From assembly GCA_028713935.1 (NCBI GenBank), contig JAQTNI010000021.1:1-21272 (forward strand): 21,272 bases of DNA. The letters are read 5' to 3'. The translations under genes were made by a program, and so were the position numbers. How positions within the stretch are numbered: the stretch's first letter is position 1; the number at the start of each line of letters is the position of its first letter. Shown here piece by piece: positions 4,784-20,926 of this stretch. Under the pieces are notes generated by a model. It was not told the origin of the DNA. It worked only from the letters and a program-made list of their open reading frames with translations, and did not search any database. The stretch comes from Candidatus Iainarchaeum sp. (GTDB lineage Archaea > Iainarchaeota > Iainarchaeia > Iainarchaeales > GCA-2688035).

Positions 4784-5182
4784 ATGAAAAAAGCAATTAT
4801 AATCCTCTTAATCCTGATGTTTGTTGGTTCTGTTTTTGCAGTGCCAATGGCAAAAACCGAAGCTCAAATTTCTGCAGATGCATCTGTGGCTGAAAAGCAA
4901 AACCTGATTGCGGGCCAAATAGCAATTCAAATCAACAGCAATGAGGTTGCTGCAGATGGAGAAACAGGCGCTGCTATTGAGAGATGCCCTTGCATAAAAG
5001 GAGACCTTAATGGAGACGGGTTAATTAATTTTGAGGACATAAATCCTTTCACAAGGGTAATCAGGCATCCCTGGTTCTACAAAATTTTTAATCCACGCAT
5101 GTTTTGCGCAGCAGACATCAACAACGATAACGAAGTAGACTTCAAGGACATAAATCCTTTCGTTGCACTGCTTTCACAATAA
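4784..5182 (+). CDS. secreted protein consisting of a signal peptide, a linker and one dockerin-type (two Ca-binding repeats) module
   Basis: Signal peptide MKKAIIILLILMFVGSVFA. The two repeats are GDLNGDGLINFEDINPF and ADINNDNEVDFKDINPF. SD GGGGGTG lies 7 nt upstream. Confidence 0.8.
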   Translation: MKKAIIILLILMFVGSVFAVPMAKTEAQISADASVAEKQNLIAGQIAIQINSNEVAADGETGAAIERCPCIKGDLNGDGLINFEDINPFTRVIRHPWFYKIFNPRMFCAADINNDNEVDFKDINPFVALLSQ

Positions 5183-8487: not shown

Positions 8488-8973
8488 TTATTTTCTTGAA
8501 AAAAATGCCCCTCTTGAATCGGATTGTTCTTTTTTGGTTTCCTTTTCTTTTCTTGGAAGCTCTATTTCAATTATTTCCGCTTCAGATTCAGAACGGATTT
8601 GCTCCACGAGTTCCCTGTAAAACTGGTTGTCCTGTTTCACCAAAAAAACAGTGCCAATTTTTTTTAAGTGGATTGTCTGCAGGATTTTTCTTTCAGTATT
8701 GCCCCATTCCTCTATGTCAAAGCATTTTTTCCTGCGCCGCACAAAAAATTTTCTAATAAGCTGCATCAGGACATTTCCGGCCGCAATATCTGAAGCCGCA
8801 AAGCCAAACATTCCAGGCATAAAACCAGTGTCAATCACAAGCAGCAGGAAAATTTCTTCGGCTTCTTTTGGAATCTGCTCCAGAAAACCAGTGTTGCCTT
8901 CCTGCTTGGAAAGAATCGGCATAAGAATGCGCTTTTTTTCGCTTTCAGGCATTGCAACACCAAAAAAATTCAT
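8488..8973 (-). CDS. hypothetical protein, weakly universal-stress-protein (adenine-nucleotide alpha-hydrolase)-like
   Basis: 161 aa. KRILMPI...IFLLLVIDT...GTVFLVKQD alternates beta-strand-like segments as in USP folds. No ATP-binding G-x2-G-x9-G(S/T) motif was seen. ATGA overlap with the upstream gene. Confidence 0.55.
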   Translation of the reverse strand: MNFFGVAMPESEKKRILMPILSKQEGNTGFLEQIPKEAEEIFLLLVIDTGFMPGMFGFAASDIAAGNVLMQLIRKFFVRRRKKCFDIEEWGNTERKILQTIHLKKIGTVFLVKQDNQFYRELVEQIRSESEAEIIEIELPRKEKETKKEQSDSRGAFFSRK

Positions 8974-9740
8974 TTGACATAAGAATACTGACCTTTTTTC
9001 TTTTCAATTATTTCGCCGTCCTCTTTGAGGAATTCACAGGTTATTCTTGCCAAAATTGCGCTTACAGACGCTTTTTTTGCAATCTCTTCAATTGGAATGG
9101 TCTTGTTTGCCTTTATGATTTCAAGAACTGGCTGTGAATATCTCTGAAGCAAGGAAGTTTCAATTATGTAATAATTCCCGTCAAAGCTTTTTATTCCGGA
9201 AATCTGGCCGCTTTTAATCGAGTCTTTTAATTCATAAGAAAGCAATTCCGCTTTTTTCCTGTCAGAACAGACAAGCAAGCCGTCTTTTTCAAGGCAATAA
9301 TCAGCGGCAGGCTTGTTTTCAGAAAAGGCCTTTTCAGATTCTTTTTTTTTTGGCGGGGCGATTTTATAAACAGGCTTTTTGTATTTGTCGCTCAGCTTGA
9401 AGGCAAACACTTTCCCCTCTTTTAACATTTCCCTGAATTGCTCTGCTTCTTTCTGCGAAAGAAGCTTTTCAAATTTTCCTTCAACGCGCTCAGACAATTT
9501 TTTTTCCTCAAGCAAGGACAAAATTTTTTCTTCAAGCGCAATTTTGTCAGGCCCCTGCTTTGTAGTTTCGGGCGATTTTGCGGGAGGGAAGGAAAATTCT
9601 TTTTCGGAAATTACAATTACTCCCTGCCTGATTTTTGTCAATTCAAAATCAGATTCAGGGCTTATGCCAAAGTCTTTCAATTGTTCCTGTGAAAGAATTT
9701 TTGCAATTTCTTTTCCCTTAATGAGAGCCATCCTTACCAT
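8970..9740 (-). CDS. hypothetical protein with probable C-terminal winged-helix domain
   Basis: 256 aa. The C-terminus IPIEEIAKKASVSAILARITCEFLKEDGEIIEKKKGQYSYV looks wHTH-like. Its stop overlaps the next start (ATGA at 8970-8973). Confidence 0.6.
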   Translation of the reverse strand: MVRMALIKGKEIAKILSQEQLKDFGISPESDFELTKIRQGVIVISEKEFSFPPAKSPETTKQGPDKIALEEKILSLLEEKKLSERVEGKFEKLLSQKEAEQFREMLKEGKVFAFKLSDKYKKPVYKIAPPKKKESEKAFSENKPAADYCLEKDGLLVCSDRKKAELLSYELKDSIKSGQISGIKSFDGNYYIIETSLLQRYSQPVLEIIKANKTIPIEEIAKKASVSAILARITCEFLKEDGEIIEKKKGQYSYVK

Positions 9741-13769: not shown

Positions 13770-16043
13770 ATGGACAAAAAAATAATTCTGGCACTTGCCC
13801 TGATTATTTTCTTTTCAATCAATGCCTTTGCACTGGAGTCCTGCCCAAAAGAAATTAATTATTGGTATGAGCTAGAAAAAGAAACTTTTGTTGCAGACAA
13901 GATAACTGCTTTTGGGTACCCTCCCAATGTATTGGCTTACACCAATAATGGCAACTGCTGCGGAATGAATCAGAATGAAGTCAGAAGAATTAAAGCAGTT
14001 TATGGCATAAGAACTGCTTCCAATAGTGAAGAAGCCTGGAACTCAACACTGTTAAAAATCACAATGTTAAAGCACAACAAGGACAAATTATTGCAGGAAA
14101 GAGGTTATACAATTGACAATGACACCTGGGATTTCAAATTTGAATTGATAAAGCCGGATGGAACAGTGTTAAGCACTGTTCAAAAGGAAATCTGGGAAAG
14201 CTCTAACACTGCAATAAATGCAGGGAGAACCTCGCTGGACATTTCAATGCCTGACGGCACACTTGTTTTTCATGTTACATTAGACCTTGATGAAGACAAT
14301 GGCCTTTTAAATGGCGGCCAATTGGACAAAATTTATGTTGAAGCAAAGCAGGACATAATGCAATTAATGAAAACCCTGGCAAATGATAACAGCGCAACGT
14401 GCATTGGCAGCGGCTGCGGTTTTGGTGAAAAGGATTCAGAATTAAACCCTGATGAAACATGCCCAAAAGAATTGAAATATATTTTCAAACAAGGAAAATT
14501 CTTAGGCATAAACAGTGAAAACACTTCCAAATATTCTAGTGAAAACTCTATTCTTTACACTGCCCCGCATTCTAACTGGGTCGGTGAAACAAGCGGTTGT
14601 TTCCTAAGCAAAGGCCAGGCAATGACAGTGAATTCAGTGTATCTTGAAATGTCTCCAAGCAACACGCCAAGAAAAGTAAAGACTTCTTTGCTGAAAATCA
14701 CAATGAAAGACACTCACATTGACAAATTGAGCTCTGGCAGTGACAATGACACCTGGGATTTTGATTTTGAATTATTAAATGGCAGTGGCGCTGCGATAAA
14801 AAAAGATTCTGCTGAAATCTGGGAATATTCAAGTTCAGCAGAAGCAGCTGACAAAACAAAGCTGGATATTGCAATGCCTGATGGCACTCCTGTTTTTCAT
14901 GTAGCACTGAACATGGATTCGGATGCAATCCACGATGGCCAATTGGACAAAATTTATGTTGAAGCAAAGCCAAGTGTGGAAACAGTAATGCAAAAACTTG
15001 CAGGAGCAGAGCCTGGCAGCGGCACTTGCCCAGTTGGCCCGATTGCGGATGCTAAAATAGACGGTATTCCTGTTGGCGGGAGCAAATTCAAAATGTGCAA
15101 ATTCAGCCCTGGGGATTTATTCGGGAATCTTTTCAATGCAGATGGCTCCAAATACAAAGCAACTCCGATTTTTAAGTTAGGCAATAATATAGGAGTTTTT
15201 GTGCCTCCAAACCCACAGCAAATTTGCATGAAAGACCAGGCCCCTTCCACAATATTCTGGTCAACAAGCGACAAGGAAACTACAAAGTGCTATTCGGGGG
15301 ATGAATTAAGCGAAGAGCAAAAAAACATTTTGAAAGAAGCCTTTAATGGCTTTTACAATGTTTTTCCGGGCGGTGTCGTTGAGAAATACTTAAAATCTGT
15401 TTTTGCAGCAAAAAATGCAAAGTCAATTGCTGCAGGCGGCACACACGATAGTGGTTTTAATGGCATGACAATTGAAATGGATGCATTCCTTTATTCTGCC
15501 AAAGAAGGCTGCCTGAATCAAACAGATGCAAAACAAACTGCGATTCATGAATTTACACACTTAATGGATTTCCACAATTGCTTTATTTTCAGTGAAGCTG
15601 ATGAGAAAGGCAACGATGGAAAATGGAAATTTTCAGGCTCAATGGAAAAAGAATGGTCCAAAATCACGCCTTACACGGATTATTTGGGCAAGAATTATAA
15701 CACAGTAAGCACTGAAAAGGACGGTTTTATTCCCTATGAAATTTCCACCTATGTGAGATCTGATGCTTCTGAAGACCTCGCCGAAACCACAGCCTACCTG
15801 CTGATGAACAATGAGGACACAAAATTAATTTCTGAAAAGGCAATAGGAGACAGCAAGCTCAAGCAGAAGATTCTGCTTATCGAAAAAATTTGGTCGGATG
15901 CCACGAACGGAGCAATGAACCATGATTGGTGGTGCGGGAACATTGACAAGCTTGATGTTGATTGTTCAGTGCCTGCGAAAAACATGAATGAGGCAATCCA
16001 GAAGATTAACAATAAGCTATTGAAGAGCCTTGGGGCAAATTAA
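13770..16043 (+). CDS. secreted zinc metalloprotease (HExxH, gluzincin-like) with two tandem N-terminal modules I could not assign to a known family
   Basis: Signal peptide MDKKIILALALIIFFSINAFA and no C-terminal TM. HEFTH lies at nt 15546-15560 and a downstream SEDLAETTAY (E-x-x-A-E type third-ligand motif) at 15771-15785. Two modules of about 207 aa each start with CPKE and end with GQLDKIYVEAK. Confidence 0.8.
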   Translation: MDKKIILALALIIFFSINAFALESCPKEINYWYELEKETFVADKITAFGYPPNVLAYTNNGNCCGMNQNEVRRIKAVYGIRTASNSEEAWNSTLLKITMLKHNKDKLLQERGYTIDNDTWDFKFELIKPDGTVLSTVQKEIWESSNTAINAGRTSLDISMPDGTLVFHVTLDLDEDNGLLNGGQLDKIYVEAKQDIMQLMKTLANDNSATCIGSGCGFGEKDSELNPDETCPKELKYIFKQGKFLGINSENTSKYSSENSILYTAPHSNWVGETSGCFLSKGQAMTVNSVYLEMSPSNTPRKVKTSLLKITMKDTHIDKLSSGSDNDTWDFDFELLNGSGAAIKKDSAEIWEYSSSAEAADKTKLDIAMPDGTPVFHVALNMDSDAIHDGQLDKIYVEAKPSVETVMQKLAGAEPGSGTCPVGPIADAKIDGIPVGGSKFKMCKFSPGDLFGNLFNADGSKYKATPIFKLGNNIGVFVPPNPQQICMKDQAPSTIFWSTSDKETTKCYSGDELSEEQKNILKEAFNGFYNVFPGGVVEKYLKSVFAAKNAKSIAAGGTHDSGFNGMTIEMDAFLYSAKEGCLNQTDAKQTAIHEFTHLMDFHNCFIFSEADEKGNDGKWKFSGSMEKEWSKITPYTDYLGKNYNTVSTEKDGFIPYEISTYVRSDASEDLAETTAYLLMNNEDTKLISEKAIGDSKLKQKILLIEKIWSDATNGAMNHDWWCGNIDKLDVDCSVPAKNMNEAIQKINNKLLKSLGAN
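13842..14970 (+). repeat. intragenic tandem duplication (period about 620 nt) inside the metalloprotease gene
   Basis: A 34-nt perfect repeat, ggccaattggacaaaatttatgttgaagcaaagc, occurs at 14316-14349 and 14937-14970 (offset 621 nt, 207 codons). Further near-identical stretches encode NDTWDF and MPDGT.VFHV. Confidence 0.85.
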
Positions 16044-16047
16044 AAAG

Positions 16048-16227
16048 TTATTTTCTTTTTTTTATTGGTGCGCTTTCATAGCAACAGTTTCTGCAGCAAC
16101 TGCTTTCCAGTTCTTTAAAATGGCCTTGTGAAACTGCAACCTTTGCTGAACCCCATTTTGCAAGAGGGGAAAGAGGCTCTTTTTCCTGTTTTTCCGCAAG
16201 TTTATTCATAAGAGCAATTTTTTGCAT
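16048..16227 (-). CDS. small Cys-rich ORF (59 aa), possibly coupled to the surface-protein operon
   Basis: MQKIALMNKLAEKQEKEPLSPLAKWGSAKVAVSQGHFKELESSCCRNCCYESAPIKKRK. Its ATG overlaps the TAA of the 752-aa gene (TAATG at 16225-16229). It falls below the ORF-track cutoff and has no homology that I recognise. Confidence 0.35.
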   Translation of the reverse strand: MQKIALMNKLAEKQEKEPLSPLAKWGSAKVAVSQGHFKELESSCCRNCCYESAPIKKRK

Positions 16228-18485
16228 TATTTTCTTTTTTTTGCTTTTTTCTTTGGCCTTGATTTTATTTTTTTTGTTATTTCTTCAAGGCTTTTTGCTT
16301 TTGCGCCTGTGCTTTCCTCTTCAGGGGCTTTCCAATAAGATTCAATTTTTTCCTCTTTGTCTTCTTCTTTGGAAAAGGTTCCCCTGCTTTTTAGGATGAT
16401 TACTATTGCAAGGACAATCACTATTGCAATCAATACGACCATGGCGAGGTCTTTTACGCTTGCCGTTGGAATCCATCCGAAAATCGGCACCTGCTGTTTT
16501 TTCTGGGCATTAAGGTCAATCTGTATGTCCCTTACTATTTCGCCTTTGTCAGTAAAGATTCTTATTGGCACAGTGAATTGTGTTTCATTGAAATCCTTGC
16601 CAAGGAAAAGAGTCATTTTTGCCTGCAATTCTTCTTCGGGTGCAAGGCTTTTTTCTGAAAAGTCAAATTTTGCATTATAACCAAATGCATTCAGGTCTGT
16701 TATTTTTACAATGGAATTTGAATCGTTTTTTATTGAAATGCCAATCTCAACTGTTTTTTCCACTGCCTGTGTAACATTTCCCAGCTCTCCGGAAGCCGAA
16801 ACGTCTGCCTTGCCGATTGCGCCATAAAGCCCGCCGTAAACATTTGCAATTATTTCTTTTGATTCTGAAAAGTGCTGTGCTGAAATTGAGAGTTTTGCAT
16901 TGTAAGGGGAATTTTTTGTGTCATAAGGCGGGTCAAAGTAAAGGTAAATTTCTTTTTCCTGGCCTGCTTCCAAGCCAAAGGAGCCTGGCTGGAAATAAAC
17001 CCAGTTTTCTCCTGCAACATCTGCATTCACAGTGGTTTTTTTTGTCCCAGTGTTTTTTATTTTTACTGTGAAAGGATTTGCCTTGTTGCCTTTTGAATCA
17101 GAGGCATTGACATCAATTGAATTGTTCAGGCCGTCATAATCCACAAGCAGTGCATAGCAGGCAATTGCCCTGAAGGAAAATTTTTCTTTTGTTGAAAAAT
17201 AATTTGAGCTGATTGCCAGTTCAAAGTTTTTGTCCCCCGCGGTTTCGTTTGCAAGGCTGATTGTTGCCTTAAAAACCTGTTTTTGACCTGGCTGGATTGT
17301 TGCAGTGGCAGGTGTTGCCTGTGCAGTTATTCCCGTAAGGGAAAGGCTAACGTCAATTGGCTCTGCCTTGCTGTTAAATAATTCAAATTCGTAAACAAGC
17401 TGCTCTTCAATGCAGGCTTCTGGCACTGCTGTTTCCTGGCCATTTGCCTTTACGCTTGAAATTGCAACTCCATAACAATCCTGCAATTGCACTGAAAATT
17501 CTTGCTCAGTATCTTTGCCAAAGAGTTTTGAATGGGCAACAATTACAAATGGGTATTCTTTTGCTGTTGAATCTGTTTTTTTGAAGGAAACGTCAATTGT
17601 TTTTTCTTCCCCTGAATTCAGGTCAAGCGCGGCCTGGCTGATTGAGGCCCATGGCAGGCCTGAAACGCTTAATTCAAGAGAATCCGCTAACCTGCCGGAA
17701 TTTTTTATTTTTATTTGTGCAGTTGTTTCCTTGTCCTTGCAGGATTTAAGCGGGTTTGCTGAAATAATTGTTTGCTGTGCATCGGCAATTTTCAATGCAA
17801 GGCTTTTCTGGGCAACAAAATTTATGCTCTGGATTGTTGCCTGCACACTAAAAGGGTATTCTTTTGCCTGTGCAGAGCAGGCAGGCTTTAATTTCACAAG
17901 AACCTGTTTTGAATGGTTTTTTTCAAGCAAAAAAGCGTCTTTTGAATAGTCAAGCCATTGGTCTGGCAGGCCTTTTATGAAAAAGGAAACAAGCTCGTCG
18001 CTTCTCCCAGTGTTTGCAATTGTTGCAGTAAAATTTTTTTGTTCACACTGCCTCAATTCAAAGGAAGCTGCATTGACATCAATTGAAACAGACCTGCTTG
18101 GCCTTACTGTAACGGAAATTATTTGTGAAAAGCTTTCCGATGCGCCTGCAAATTGCAGTGTTATTTCGTAATTTCCAGGCTGTGTATAACAGCTCTGTGG
18201 TTTTATGAAAGCATAAAGATTTTTTGCTTCGCCTGAAGCGAGTGTGATTTCAAGGGCTTCTTTTCCAACCCATTTTCCATTCAGGTTTATCCAGTCCTTG
18301 TTTTCTCCGACAGAACTAATCCTGAATGTTTGGCCCTGTGCAGAATCATTGTTCAGGGAAAAAACAGCCTGGGCAGGAGAAAGGCAGTCAACTGAAACAG
18401 AAAAATTTCCCGTCACTGCGGATGCATTTGCAGCCGCAAGCAAAAACAAAAAGATTATTGCTGAAAAAATTATTTTTGAATTCAT
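16227..18485 (-). CDS. type-I anchored surface protein with about 6 CARDB/NEW3-like beta-sandwich repeats
   Basis: Signal peptide MNSKIIFSAIIFLFLLAAANASA and C-terminal TM LAMVVLIAIVIVLAIVIIL followed by a Lys-rich tail. Recurrent module: C..(F/T)..I.N.G... GLP... G(E/Q)EK... (E/N)Y.F.V. Many N-x-S/T sequons. Confidence 0.8.
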   Translation of the reverse strand: MNSKIIFSAIIFLFLLAAANASAVTGNFSVSVDCLSPAQAVFSLNNDSAQGQTFRISSVGENKDWINLNGKWVGKEALEITLASGEAKNLYAFIKPQSCYTQPGNYEITLQFAGASESFSQIISVTVRPSRSVSIDVNAASFELRQCEQKNFTATIANTGRSDELVSFFIKGLPDQWLDYSKDAFLLEKNHSKQVLVKLKPACSAQAKEYPFSVQATIQSINFVAQKSLALKIADAQQTIISANPLKSCKDKETTAQIKIKNSGRLADSLELSVSGLPWASISQAALDLNSGEEKTIDVSFKKTDSTAKEYPFVIVAHSKLFGKDTEQEFSVQLQDCYGVAISSVKANGQETAVPEACIEEQLVYEFELFNSKAEPIDVSLSLTGITAQATPATATIQPGQKQVFKATISLANETAGDKNFELAISSNYFSTKEKFSFRAIACYALLVDYDGLNNSIDVNASDSKGNKANPFTVKIKNTGTKKTTVNADVAGENWVYFQPGSFGLEAGQEKEIYLYFDPPYDTKNSPYNAKLSISAQHFSESKEIIANVYGGLYGAIGKADVSASGELGNVTQAVEKTVEIGISIKNDSNSIVKITDLNAFGYNAKFDFSEKSLAPEEELQAKMTLFLGKDFNETQFTVPIRIFTDKGEIVRDIQIDLNAQKKQQVPIFGWIPTASVKDLAMVVLIAIVIVLAIVIILKSRGTFSKEEDKEEKIESYWKAPEEESTGAKAKSLEEITKKIKSRPKKKAKKRK

Positions 18486-20344
18486 TTTCTGTCCCCCACT
18501 TTTTCTATAAGCAGTGTTTTTTCCTGCTTTGAAACAACAATGCCAGTAATTGCTATCAGGAGCAATAGGGCAATTATCAGCAATGCAAGGCCAATAGCAA
18601 GGCCTCCGCCCATTGAAAGGAAGCCAACTGAAAACAGGCCTGAAATAAAGCCCTGGTTTTCCTGCTCTGGCTCCTGGGCAGCGCTTGCAATAATTATTTC
18701 AAATTCCCTTGTTTTTATAGAATTATCCTTTTTGACTTCAATAACCGCATTGTATCTTCCTGCTGGAATTTTTCCGATTGTAAGATTGAGAGTTACATTC
18801 CTTGTGTCTGAAGGATAAATTTCAATGCCTCTCGCTGAGCTTGCAGTGATTGCGGATGGAAGGCCTTTGATTGAAACATCAATTCCTTCAAGGGCTTCGC
18901 TTGAATTGTTCCTCAGTTTTATTGAAACTGAACTCTGGGAATTTTCAGTTGCCTGAATCTGCAATGGGGCGCTTTCAATTGACAATTCATCCTCAACTGT
19001 TTCTGGGGCTTTTTCAAGCACCTTGAAAACAGCCTTGTTCTGGAAAGTCTTGCTGCCAATTCTTGTCATCACATTCAAATCGTAATTTCCAAGGTTTGCA
19101 TCAGGTGAAACTGAAACAAAAAGATAAACCTCTTTTTCCTGTCCTGAAGTCAGGGAAAAATTGTTGTCTGAAAATCTTGCGCTTATTCCTGAAGGAATTT
19201 TTGGAATGTCAAACCTTACTGTGTGGTTTGTGTCGCCAATGTTTTTCACAAGGAAAACAAAAGAATCGCTTTCGCATCTCCTGATTGAAAGATTGTTGTT
19301 TAAGAGTGAAACATCAAAAATTGAGGTTGCATTGACCCTAATGCACTTTTTTTTCTCTATTCTCTGGTTTTCATTCCAAACAATCAAATTCGCATTATGG
19401 TCGCCTTTTGAATCTGATGCCCTTGGGGAAAGCTCAAAGAAAAAGTCCCTTTCCTCTCCTGAAGACAAAGTTGCTGAAGTTGCGCTGATTGAATTCGGCA
19501 AGTCACTGAGAATATTCATGCTTATTGCCTGGTCTTTGCCAGTAAGGTTTTTGACTGAAAAATAAAATTTTCCTGTTTTTTCCTTTTCAATTGCTGTGCA
19601 GCTTGAATCAAGGGTAACAAGGAAAGCAGAGCCAAGATTTCCCTCGCAGTCCTTTACATTTATAAAAGCTGTTTTTTTGATGTAATCAAGGCCTGTTGTT
19701 GCATAAATGCTCACGCTGTTTGGCCCTGTTGCAGTTGCGTTGCTTGTGTGCACAAAAAGCTTTACATATTTTTCCTGGAAAGCGTCAAGAAAAATTTCTT
19801 CCTGCTCAAAAGCAGGCAGCAATGATTCATTCTCTGCATTAAGGTGAACCTTTGTAAAAAAAGGAGTTTTGTTTCTCACAAGGACATTGACAAACCCTTC
19901 AGAATCCCTGCAGATGTCTGTTTCAAAAGGGATTATTTCAATTGATTCATTGTCCCCAACAGTAATTCTGGCAATTGCAACATTGAAAGAATTGCCATTG
20001 ACTTTAACGATTATTGCCTCAACGAAATCCGCTTTTGGCGCGTCTGTTGTCTGGAAGCTTGCCGCAATTTCTGTCCTTTCCCCTGCATTAAGGCAGAAGC
20101 TTGTTTGGGGAAAAGAAGCTGAAATATAAGGCGAAGAATCAAAAGCCATTAGTTCAATGCATTTTCTTTCATTTGAATTATTAATGAAAGTATAAGCAAC
20201 CCCAACAGTGTCATTGCGACCCATGAAAATTGTTTCGTTCTGCGGAACAATATCTATTCCGCCAAAAACCAGTGCGGAGGCCTGTGAAGCAAAAGCCAGG
20301 ATAAAGAAAAATGCAAGCAAGCTGAAAAATTGTTTTGTTTTCAA
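18482..20344 (-). CDS. type-I anchored surface protein with about 5 CARDB/NEW3-like beta-sandwich repeats
   Basis: Signal peptide MKTKQFFSLLAFFFILAFASQASA and C-terminal TM GLAIGLALLIIALLLLIAITGIVV. Modules include FLVKNIGDTNHT and IKLRNNSSEALEG..GLPSAI. TTG start preceded by AAGGTGG (20349-20355). Its stop overlaps the next start (ATGA). Confidence 0.8.
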   Translation of the reverse strand: MKTKQFFSLLAFFFILAFASQASALVFGGIDIVPQNETIFMGRNDTVGVAYTFINNSNERKCIELMAFDSSPYISASFPQTSFCLNAGERTEIAASFQTTDAPKADFVEAIIVKVNGNSFNVAIARITVGDNESIEIIPFETDICRDSEGFVNVLVRNKTPFFTKVHLNAENESLLPAFEQEEIFLDAFQEKYVKLFVHTSNATATGPNSVSIYATTGLDYIKKTAFINVKDCEGNLGSAFLVTLDSSCTAIEKEKTGKFYFSVKNLTGKDQAISMNILSDLPNSISATSATLSSGEERDFFFELSPRASDSKGDHNANLIVWNENQRIEKKKCIRVNATSIFDVSLLNNNLSIRRCESDSFVFLVKNIGDTNHTVRFDIPKIPSGISARFSDNNFSLTSGQEKEVYLFVSVSPDANLGNYDLNVMTRIGSKTFQNKAVFKVLEKAPETVEDELSIESAPLQIQATENSQSSVSIKLRNNSSEALEGIDVSIKGLPSAITASSARGIEIYPSDTRNVTLNLTIGKIPAGRYNAVIEVKKDNSIKTREFEIIIASAAQEPEQENQGFISGLFSVGFLSMGGGLAIGLALLIIALLLLIAITGIVVSKQEKTLLIEKVGDRK

Positions 20345-20362
20345 AAAACCACCTTAAAAAAA

Positions 20363-20926
20363 TTAATTGAGTCTCCTTACGAATCTTGCAATAAAAGCAA
20401 TGAGAAGAATTGCAGCAATAAAGGCAAGTGCAATGTTAAGCGCATTTTCGCTTCCAAAAGCAGCAAGGGAAAATAGCCCTGCAGAAATCGGGTTGCCATT
20501 GCCTGGAGGCCCTGGTGCAGGAACAGGAACAATGGTTTTCTTGAAAGAAAGCCCTATTGTCCTGATTATTTTGTCGCTTCCAAGGCTTACTATTAAAGTG
20601 CTGTCATAGGTTTTGCCAAAAAGTTCATTTGAAGGAAAAATTGTAATTGCAAATTTTGCTTCCGAATAAGGGCCTATTCTTGCAGGCACATAAGGCAGAT
20701 TGGAAACTGCGGGAGAAAAAAACTTTATGTCAAGGTTTTGTTCAATGGGAGAATCGTTTGCAACAGTAATCCAGATATCCCTTGGGGAATCAAAAACAAT
20801 AATGCTGCCAGGCGCATCAACATTAAAGGCGCTGGCGCTGCCTATCAAAAAAAAGCAAAAAACCAAAGCTGAAATTAACCAAGCAATCCTTTTTGCCAAA
20901 AAACACACCCCAATATTATTCTTCAC
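20363..20926 (-). CDS. small type-I anchored surface protein (single beta-sandwich-like domain, Pro/Gly linker, C-terminal TM)
   Basis: N-terminal signal/TM AWLISALVFCFFLIGSASA, linker PVPAPGPPGNGNP, C-terminal TM ALNIALAFIAAILLIAFIA followed by RFVRR. GTG start with no obvious SD, so the start is uncertain. Confidence 0.65.
   Translation of the reverse strand: MKNNIGVCFLAKRIAWLISALVFCFFLIGSASAFNVDAPGSIIVFDSPRDIWITVANDSPIEQNLDIKFFSPAVSNLPYVPARIGPYSEAKFAITIFPSNELFGKTYDSTLIVSLGSDKIIRTIGLSFKKTIVPVPAPGPPGNGNPISAGLFSLAAFGSENALNIALAFIAAILLIAFIARFVRRLN

Follow-up and report, generated by a model that had tools for sequence, protein, structure and literature searches.

A conserved operon of three nested, membrane-anchored Ig-like proteins in Iainarchaeota: a candidate envelope complex

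We analyzed a 21,272-bp contig (JAQTNI010000021.1; this entire stretch is referred to below as the window) from a metagenome-assembled genome (MAG) of Candidatus Iainarchaeum sp. (Diapherotrites/Iainarchaeota, within DPANN). The subject is a set of three linked genes on its (-) strand, hereafter A, B and C, for which a first-pass annotation had proposed a role in cell contact. Gene A (20363-20926, (-); NCBI PHD95_04320) is followed by B (18482-20344, (-); 620 aa from a TTG start; PHD95_04315) and by C (16227-18485, (-); 752 aa; PHD95_04310), and NCBI lists all three products as 'hypothetical'. The ribosome-binding site (RBS) AAGGTGG (20349-20355, (-)) lies 4 nt ahead of the start of B, and B and C share an ATGA stop/start overlap (18482-18485, (-)), a sign of translational coupling that is identical in the related loci L001, L002 and L008. 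These junctions, and the TAATG overlap of C with a 59-aa open reading frame (ORF), are all present as first described; together with a convergent gene for a secreted protein, the genes take up one third of the window, as had been stated (7153/21272 nt). The lengths given for B and C also held, but A is probably 9 aa shorter than the 187 aa counted from a GTG at 20926: NCBI places its start at a TTG at 20899 (178 aa), and we favor this start because of that call and of the GGGGTG RBS preceding it.

The topology of the three proteins was judged from Kyte-Doolittle hydropathy, the -3/-1 rule and the helices of AlphaFold models. Each of them starts with a hydrophobic segment running to ASA and ends with a single hydrophobic helix (hydropathy maxima 2.8-3.7) and basic residues, in agreement with the shared architecture proposed at first pass (A-x-A signal peptide, Ig-like repeats, C-terminal transmembrane (TM) helix, basic tail). 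In A, the signal peptide (ASA at 20828-20836, (-)) precedes a single immunoglobulin (Ig)-like domain (about 20534-20827, (-)), a linker, the TM helix and an RRLN tail. In B, the signal peptide is followed by five Ig-like domains (nt 18680-20272, (-); aa about 26-129, 135-231, 241-338, 343-443 and 454-553) and, after a linker, by a TM helix (18524-18589, (-)) and a short tail. C has six such domains (nt 16506-18416, (-); aa about 22-127, 133-234, 239-335, 341-441, 446-550 and 562-657), a TM helix (16383-16448, (-)) and a 51-aa cytoplasmic tail (16230-16382, (-)), which is disordered and charged, contains SLEEITKK (LEEI at 16278-16289) and finishes in the polybasic sequence KKKAKKRK. The AlphaFold2 model of C (pLDDT 81.6) consists of six successive beta-sandwich domains, the TM helix and a disordered tail, and that of B (pLDDT 76.3) of five beta-sandwich domains, a low-confidence linker and the TM helix; apart from the signal peptide, the TM segment and short turns, neither model contains helices.

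The repeat signature that had been proposed fits few repeats when applied strictly, but its core of a cysteine and N-x-G holds at the family level: a first-strand cysteine, with N-x-G about 12 residues further on, is invariant in domains 1-5 of C. Conserved cysteines number about 7 in B and about 9 in C. The claim of many N-x-S/T sequons was confirmed for B (16 against 7.2 expected, z 3.8) and C (11 against 6.1 expected, z 2.4), but not for A, in which no enrichment was found. A systematic excess also characterizes the orthologues of B and C (about 20 each, mean z about 1.6), and sequons are 3-5 times as dense as in the cytoplasmic proteins encoded in the window. The ectodomains are acidic (pI 4.1-5.4).

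Profile comparisons with hhalign related the three proteins to one another. Residues 29-607 of B aligned with residues 135-694 of C (probability 99.6%, E 1.6e-24), and residues 40-179 of A with residues 467-606 of B (probability 96.2%, E 2.4e-9), so that A matches one Ig-like domain, the linker and the TM helix of B. To judge from these alignments, A, B and C constitute a nested, collinear paralogous series and not a chance resemblance. Read from the membrane outward, A matches the last domain, linker and TM helix of B, and B matches domains 2-6, linker and TM helix of C; C is B with one additional distal domain and a cytoplasmic tail.

Searches against characterized families returned generic Ig-array similarity only, in line with the first-pass view that no known family describes these proteins. 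When Pfam and NCBIfam were searched with the three proteins, with the 59-aa ORF and with the convergent protein of 757 aa, weak E-set matches resulted and no describing family. For the CARDB/NEW3-like character that had been suggested for the repeats, the scores were mixed. For CARDB (PF07705, cut-off 22.7), C scored a borderline 22.7 bits with no individually significant stretch and B 15.1 bits, below the cut-off; B also remained below the gathering thresholds of NEW3 (PF10633; 18.4 against 24.4) and DUF11 (PF01345; 17.5 against 24.6). FixG_C (PF11614, cut-off 25.6), in contrast, was exceeded by C (55.6 bits) and, marginally, by B (26.8 bits), and A had no match to any of these four E-set families. 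A, B and C share a beta-sandwich domain class with the archaeal E-set proteins of the COG1470/CARDB/NEW3/FixG_C kind, but no function has been assigned to these domain families, and neither the operon nor the anchoring of the trio is captured by them. Profile searches of the PDB with the A, B and C family alignments gave nothing significant. Foldseek comparisons of the B and C models with the PDB retrieved generic tandem Ig arrays at 8-16% identity, including ciliary ASH-domain/PapD-like proteins, the MG domains of alpha2-macroglobulin, C3 and C5, PrgB, titin and SbsB. Identity with alpha2-macroglobulin or another thioester protein was ruled out, because the CGEQ motif and the alpha-helical thioester domain are absent; the QCEQ at C147 is the domain-initial cysteine, and the models are all-beta apart from the TM helix. 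Every public annotation of the three proteins reads 'hypothetical', the JGI label for homologues of C being 'uncharacterized membrane protein'.

Word-indexed searches identified 18 homologues of C, 5 of B and 19 of A, almost all from Diapherotrites MAGs. An exhaustive hidden Markov model (HMM) search with the A family retrieved 744 representative clusters, 284 of them at E<=1e-10; their members are mainly 165-205 aa long, with a two-domain form of about 270 aa, and a few giant bacterial repeat proteins match through the Ig domain only. A scan of species-representative genomes with the A alignment gave 25 loci in 25 assemblies, with a single copy in each. Nearly all are labeled Iainarchaeum or 'archaeon', and the two with bacterial labels are probably mis-binned. 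When the families were mapped by HMM, the order A, B, C was found in each locus with a sufficiently long contig; the first-pass annotation had asked about conserved gene order, and the order did prove to be kept across these 25 species-level genomes, although A orthologues diverge to about 30% identity. Independent gene calls in the relatives place A and B 0-19 nt apart, with B-C junctions of -11 to +96 nt. In closer relatives the gene order is a divergent MetK gene, a HTH_3-CBS regulator, A-B-C and a convergent secreted protein, beyond which TrxR-like, methyltransferase, KaiC-like and SdpI-like genes are found.

Three size classes were distinguished. In class i, which includes the window, A has about 180 aa, B 605-647 aa and C 740-800 aa; in class ii the corresponding values are about 271, about 720 and 1018-1055 aa, and in class iii 169-185, 1076-1116 and about 793 aa. 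Between classes i and ii, the domain numbers of A, B and C shift together. Two loci depart from the usual arrangement. In L002 (6166-8004; same contig as L011), B is split into ORFs of 367 and 194 aa with 150 nt between them, which may reflect pseudogenization, a frameshift or faulty assembly. In L013 (9507-11411), a B-type ectodomain (634 aa) is joined to a C-type TM helix and tail (…LPGKKLEEIGK…) with no C gene after it, and this gene is either a natural B/C chimera or the result of a deletion between paralogues.

These data bear on the view that tandem duplication gave rise to three surface glycoproteins independent of one another, with operon inheritance preserving their order and no complex being formed. 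The clear paralogy, the lack of C in L013, the split B in L002 and the variability of the B and C helices, which do not share the conservation of the A helix, are all compatible with it. However, order, tight coupling and single copy have been maintained over deep divergence, domain numbers change jointly between clades, and a juxtamembrane motif is common to all three proteins (see below). We consider independence unlikely.

The best-conserved element of the locus is the core of the TM helix of A, AAILLIAFIAR (20384-20416, (-)), which is invariant in 18 A homologues with ectodomain identity as low as 29%. Measured against the window protein, conservation reached 0.78 in the TM helix of A, compared with 0.35 in its ectodomain; the corresponding helices of B and C scored 0.38-0.39. 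Since the 25 loci were picked by this TM motif, and the word-indexed search is also biased toward it, conservation was rechecked on the exhaustive HMM hits: among 83 single-domain A representatives taken from them (<50% mutual identity), the TM block was still the top block (0.56, core 0.7-0.9; ectodomain 0.37). The codons at this helix are fully diversified, with up to five leucine codons, and synonymous sites are saturated, so the constraint is at the level of the peptide rather than of RNA or DNA, and an explanation of the invariance by an RNA element preceding the B start was accordingly rejected. A helix that stays identical while the rest of the protein falls below 30% identity marks an intramembrane interaction worth seeking. 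The helix must be in touch with something conserved in the membrane, which could be further copies of itself, in a bundle, or some conserved machine encoded elsewhere. Because the helices of B and C vary, they are unlikely to be its partners.

A second feature of the membrane end is a juxtamembrane motif, G-[LF]-[FY]-[SAT]-[LVM] (GLF(S/A)L for short), located 8-14 residues ahead of the TM helix in all three families. It reads GLFSL in A (20465-20479, (-)) and GLFSV, its counterpart, in B (18626-18640, (-)). In C it is represented by IFGW (16473-16484, (-)), where most C orthologues carry GLFSL instead. The tails of C orthologues comprise 9-100 aa (35-100 in most, 9-16 in two) and are charged, with a polybasic cluster at the end in most of them; many contain LPGKKLEEIGK, of which SLEEITKK is the counterpart in the window.

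The succession of GLF(S/A)L, hydrophobic helix and basic cluster could be taken for a C-terminal sorting signal recognized by a sortase-, archaeosortase- or rhombosortase-like enzyme. This tripartite layout recurs in all three families, and extreme conservation, as in the A helix, is what would be expected of a segment recognized by an enzyme. Several observations make such a signal highly improbable: the motif stands 8-14 residues before the helix and not at its start, the helices of B and C are variable, and the conserved 35-100-aa tail of C would vanish upon cleavage. Moreover, sorting-domain models (PGF-, PEF- and VPXXXP-CTERM and others) did not match A, B or C, the best score being that of Rumino_NPXTG (E 0.17, 12 bits). 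The 47 other, unconfirmed genomic matches to AAILLIAFI lie, by a rough estimate, at about the chance level, so a function of this sequence as a sorting tag on other proteins is likewise unsupported.

Ectodomain conservation is even throughout, with no hypervariable domain, and is highest in the distal domain D1 of C (0.50). This pattern fits structural contacts, and it bears on the role first suggested for the trio, that of an apparatus for attachment to a host or partner cell, in which the Ig arrays would serve as adhesins in an episymbiotic lifestyle. DPANN archaea are often ectosymbionts, and multi-Ig surface proteins have been proposed as interaction factors (bioRxiv 10.1101/2023.10.27.564410); in addition, a secreted dockerin-type protein is encoded in the window. 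A further point in favor comes from the class-ii loci L025-L031 (e.g. L026 5590-8913 and L028 4755-8246), where a fourth co-directional anchored gene, Z (894-1344 aa), sits directly upstream of A, between the HTH-CBS regulator and A. Z encodes a signal peptide, variable heads (CBM_4_9, Big_9, He_PIG), of which CBM_4_9 and Big_9 are lectin-like, Ig arrays and a conserved C-terminal TM helix. In A, B and C themselves, however, the Pfam and NCBIfam scans detected neither lectin nor adhesin domains; a single copy of the trio is passed down vertically among housekeeping genes (MetK, HTH-CBS, TrxR); and the evidence in hand does not indicate episymbiosis of Iainarchaeota. As the distal domains are not hypervariable, the attachment role is without support, and we regard it as unlikely. 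An envelope location, which had also been proposed, is well founded, but the accompanying contrast with housekeeping functions should be reversed: by their conservation pattern, A, B and C look like a lineage-wide housekeeping envelope component.

We tentatively favor, at somewhat less than an even chance, a heteromeric assembly of the three proteins in the cell envelope, glycosylated, anchored in the membrane and situated beneath the S-layer or inside it. The three proteins would be exported by the Sec pathway and cleaved after A-x-A, with probable N-glycosylation of B and C, and their synthesis from one operon would provide them in coupled amounts. The single C-terminal helix of each would lie in the cytoplasmic membrane with the Ig-like domains pointing outward, A (one domain) reaching a few nm and B (five) and C (six) roughly 20-25 nm if extended. 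Given the collinearity from the membrane outward and the common juxtamembrane motif, we infer that the homologous membrane-proximal modules and GLF(S/A)L motifs pair side by side and build a heteromeric stalk or pillar. A would then be a short base subunit, with its helix as an intramembrane organizer, and the basic tail of C would enter the cytoplasm. Such a complex would serve as a spacer, anchor or scaffold beneath or within the S-layer, rather than as the lattice itself.

A close parallel is found in Nanobdella aerobiophila, a cultured DPANN archaeon, in which proteins of the same architecture have been read as S-layer-like or SlaB-like anchors, one of them being the product of the 12th most expressed gene, and in which the lattice candidate is a TM-less 1000-aa protein (bioRxiv 10.1101/2023.10.27.564410). 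Like A, B and C, the Nanobdella proteins belong to a DPANN lineage and have a signal peptide, Ig-like folds (4-5 there), sequons (13-17 there), a single C-terminal TM helix and no detectable sequence family, and the Nanobdella genome encodes a separate TM-less lattice protein of the MSTP type. In contrast to the operon described here, the Nanobdella genes are dispersed and no one-domain subunit of the A type, with an invariant TM helix, has been reported; their function is likewise inferred, and the comparison was made by description only.

According to a structural survey of S-layer proteins, the lattices of DPANN archaea are built from beta-sandwiches in the MSTP-like manner, with a stalk and without a TM helix; in this class, N- and C-terminal partial domains on a beta-stalk make up the anchoring domain (bioRxiv 10.1101/2024.05.28.596244). 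The Iainarchaeota entry of the survey, A0A2G9N319 (1039 aa), carries the prediction '6+2' and shares a table block with NEQ300, the Micrarchaeum S-layer protein and the Nanobdella protein, whereas Ig-type lattices are given as '6+3' (bioRxiv 10.1101/2024.05.28.596244). The listing of this entry as MSTP-type suggests that Iainarchaeota have a separate lattice protein, and a separate TM-less S-layer protein would most likely put the complex beneath the S-layer or inside it. The S-layer protein of Micrarchaeum is a member of TIGR01564/TIGR01567. In searches with the S_layer_N/MSTP models of Pfam and NCBIfam (TIGR01564, TIGR01567/DUF1608), A, B and C gave no match at E<=1; unlike MSTP-type S-layer proteins, each of them ends in a TM helix. 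Z was also considered as an MSTP-type S-layer protein and rejected, since it combines CBM and Ig domains with a TM helix and matched no S-layer model at E<=0.01.

The survey also bears on the alternative that A/B/C, and chiefly C, are the S-layer lattice itself, similar to csg of Haloferax volcanii, an Ig-domain S-layer glycoprotein of the 'hexagonal spiral pyramid' kind, with B and A as co-assembling subunits. Its appeal lies in C, which resembles csg in its six tandem Ig-like domains, acidity, probable N-glycosylation (sequon excess) and C-terminal anchor; throughout the clade the genes are present, in one copy, the S-layer protein SbsB was among the fold matches (E 7e-13), and A0A2G9N319 is close to class-ii C (1018-1055 aa) in length, a comparison of length only. 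But csg is a lone lattice protein that is lipid-anchored via PGF-CTERM and archaeosortase A, whereas C lacks a PGF motif, retains its cytoplasmic tail and is accompanied by two paralogues, and csg was not among the top 50 fold matches. There would be no precedent for a lattice assembled from three different proteins with TM anchors, the conserved cysteines would be atypical of it, no S-layer family model was matched, and the survey entry falls in the MSTP-type TM-less block. We therefore regard the lattice alternative as quite improbable.

The anchor reading, that of a complex beneath or within the S-layer, can be compared with SlaB of Sulfolobales, a glycosylated stalk between membrane and lattice that is co-transcribed with its partner and that, like A, B and C, has type-I topology, a signal peptide, N-terminal beta-sandwich domains and a C-terminal TM helix. 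No sequence similarity exists between SlaB and A/B/C. Furthermore, SlaB is a homotrimer with a long coiled coil, whereas the models of B and C have no coiled coil and the proposed assembly would be a heteromer of paralogues; and slaB lies beside slaA, whereas neither the window nor the surroundings of the trio in related loci revealed a gene of the lattice type. A multi-subunit envelope complex with three Ig-like membrane-associated families in conserved neighborhoods has also been predicted around arCOG01314 by Makarova and colleagues, as an envelope or 'secretion' complex (Makarova, Galperin and Koonin 2015, PMC5898192; PMC6393860). Identity with this system was rejected, because DUF4350, the MoxR AAA+ ATPase, vWA and PF07760 (COG4743; 2-4 TM helices) are absent, none of its hallmark Pfam families having been found in the ORFs of the window or the called genes of L001-L006.

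Several points weigh against an anchoring complex. For contact among A, B and C the support is indirect, coming from their coupling, synteny, jointly varying domain numbers and shared motif. Packing of the A helix on those of B and C would leave its invariance unexplained, since the latter two vary. L013 holds only A and the B/C chimera, which makes the full ectodomain of C dispensable there. C-like proteins are also present beyond Iainarchaeota, in one contig of Aenigmarchaeota and in another archaeal contig, where they belong to other co-directional clusters of anchored proteins and lack an A-family partner. The conserved cysteines of B and C are unusual for S-layer-type proteins, and A0A2G9N319 could prove to be a class-ii C or Z protein itself.

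A more specific form of the anchoring complex can be conceived, in which a heterotrimeric, pseudo-symmetric pillar, its base organized in the membrane by the invariant A helix, is the membrane receptor that tethers the TM-less MSTP-type S-layer of these archaea, and the basic tail of C couples the envelope to a cytoplasmic partner. We regard this as doubtful, but such a pillar would represent a new principle of S-layer anchoring, a heteromer of nested paralogues, for MSTP-type lattices. Anchored Ig-array surface glycoproteins are already common in archaea; what stands out here is the conserved operon of nested paralogues and the invariant helix of its small subunit. These features bear on the envelope of Iainarchaeota and on the way in which TM-less MSTP-type S-layers (DPANN, class I methanogens) are attached to the membrane. 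The lineage-wide, single-copy operon is a concrete target for multimer modeling, metaproteomics and cryo-electron tomography, and models of the three families could be used to annotate several hundred 'hypothetical' proteins.

Two neighbors that the first-pass annotation had associated with the trio do not appear to belong to it. The 59-aa ORF (16048-16227, (-); a 53-aa hypothetical protein according to NCBI) encodes a CCxxCC motif and a basic tail and lies in an insertion of about 180 nt between the stop codon of C and that of the convergent gene, where relatives leave 4-20 nt. As tblastn detected no homologue in 30 related loci and the relatives offer no space for it, the ORF was rejected as a fourth component and is probably spurious or strain-specific. 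The convergent secreted protein of 757 aa (13770-16043, (+)) has an HExxH sequence and a Peptidase_Mx1 score of 22.5 bits, below the cut-off of 25.6. Among related loci, the HExxH domain was found at this position only in the window and in L008. The genes occupying the position vary: a 445-aa protein, with which the N-terminal 420 aa alone are shared, PKD proteins and, in class ii, a cytoplasmic TrmB-like regulator. For these reasons the protein was rejected as an integral secreted protease of the system. At its C terminus (15980-16043, (+)) there is an amphipathic helix of about 20 aa, NMNEAIQKINNKLLKSLG-like, which is common to the otherwise different convergent secreted proteins of L001, L004 and L008, and weaker in L003, L005 and L019. 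This helix may be a retention or docking peptide.

Upstream of A, at the end of the contig (21112-21272, (+)), begins a divergent gene that by eye is of the RidA/YjgF type (MKKEIVKVKGIVSPPNPFSHVVKAGNFLFLSSQ...); MetK and the HTH-CBS regulator occupy this side of A in relatives, and upstream synteny is thus broken in this MAG. In L006 (4947-7472; same contig as L023), an S-adenosylmethionine synthetase of 841 aa carries LAGLIDADG_3 between S-AdoMet_synt domains, an intein-like insertion. The remaining genes of the window are typical archaeal housekeeping genes, among them those for a tRNA-splicing endonuclease, a KaiC-like ATPase, alanine dehydrogenase, a PIN protein, a class I aminoacyl-tRNA synthetase of the W/Y type (Pfam tRNA-synt_1b), a thioredoxin-reductase-like flavoprotein and a radical-SAM/SPASM enzyme. 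Scans for tRNAs and Rfam families identified no RNA gene in the window. The dockerin-type protein mentioned above (132 aa, secreted; 4784-5182, (+)) has a type-I dockerin-like double calcium loop, DLNGDGLINFEDINPF ... DINNDNEVDFKDINPF, with a Pfam Dockerin_1 match slightly under threshold (E 2.4e-4), and was not found in the related loci examined. A dockerin implies a cohesin-like partner at the cell surface, for which no candidate was identified. Finally, two unannotated ORFs of 161 and 256 aa with no Pfam match (8488-9740, (-)) lie beside the SdpI-like gene; they are kept next to it in L001, L004 and L013, the 256-aa ORF also in L022, and form a conserved pair of unassigned role.

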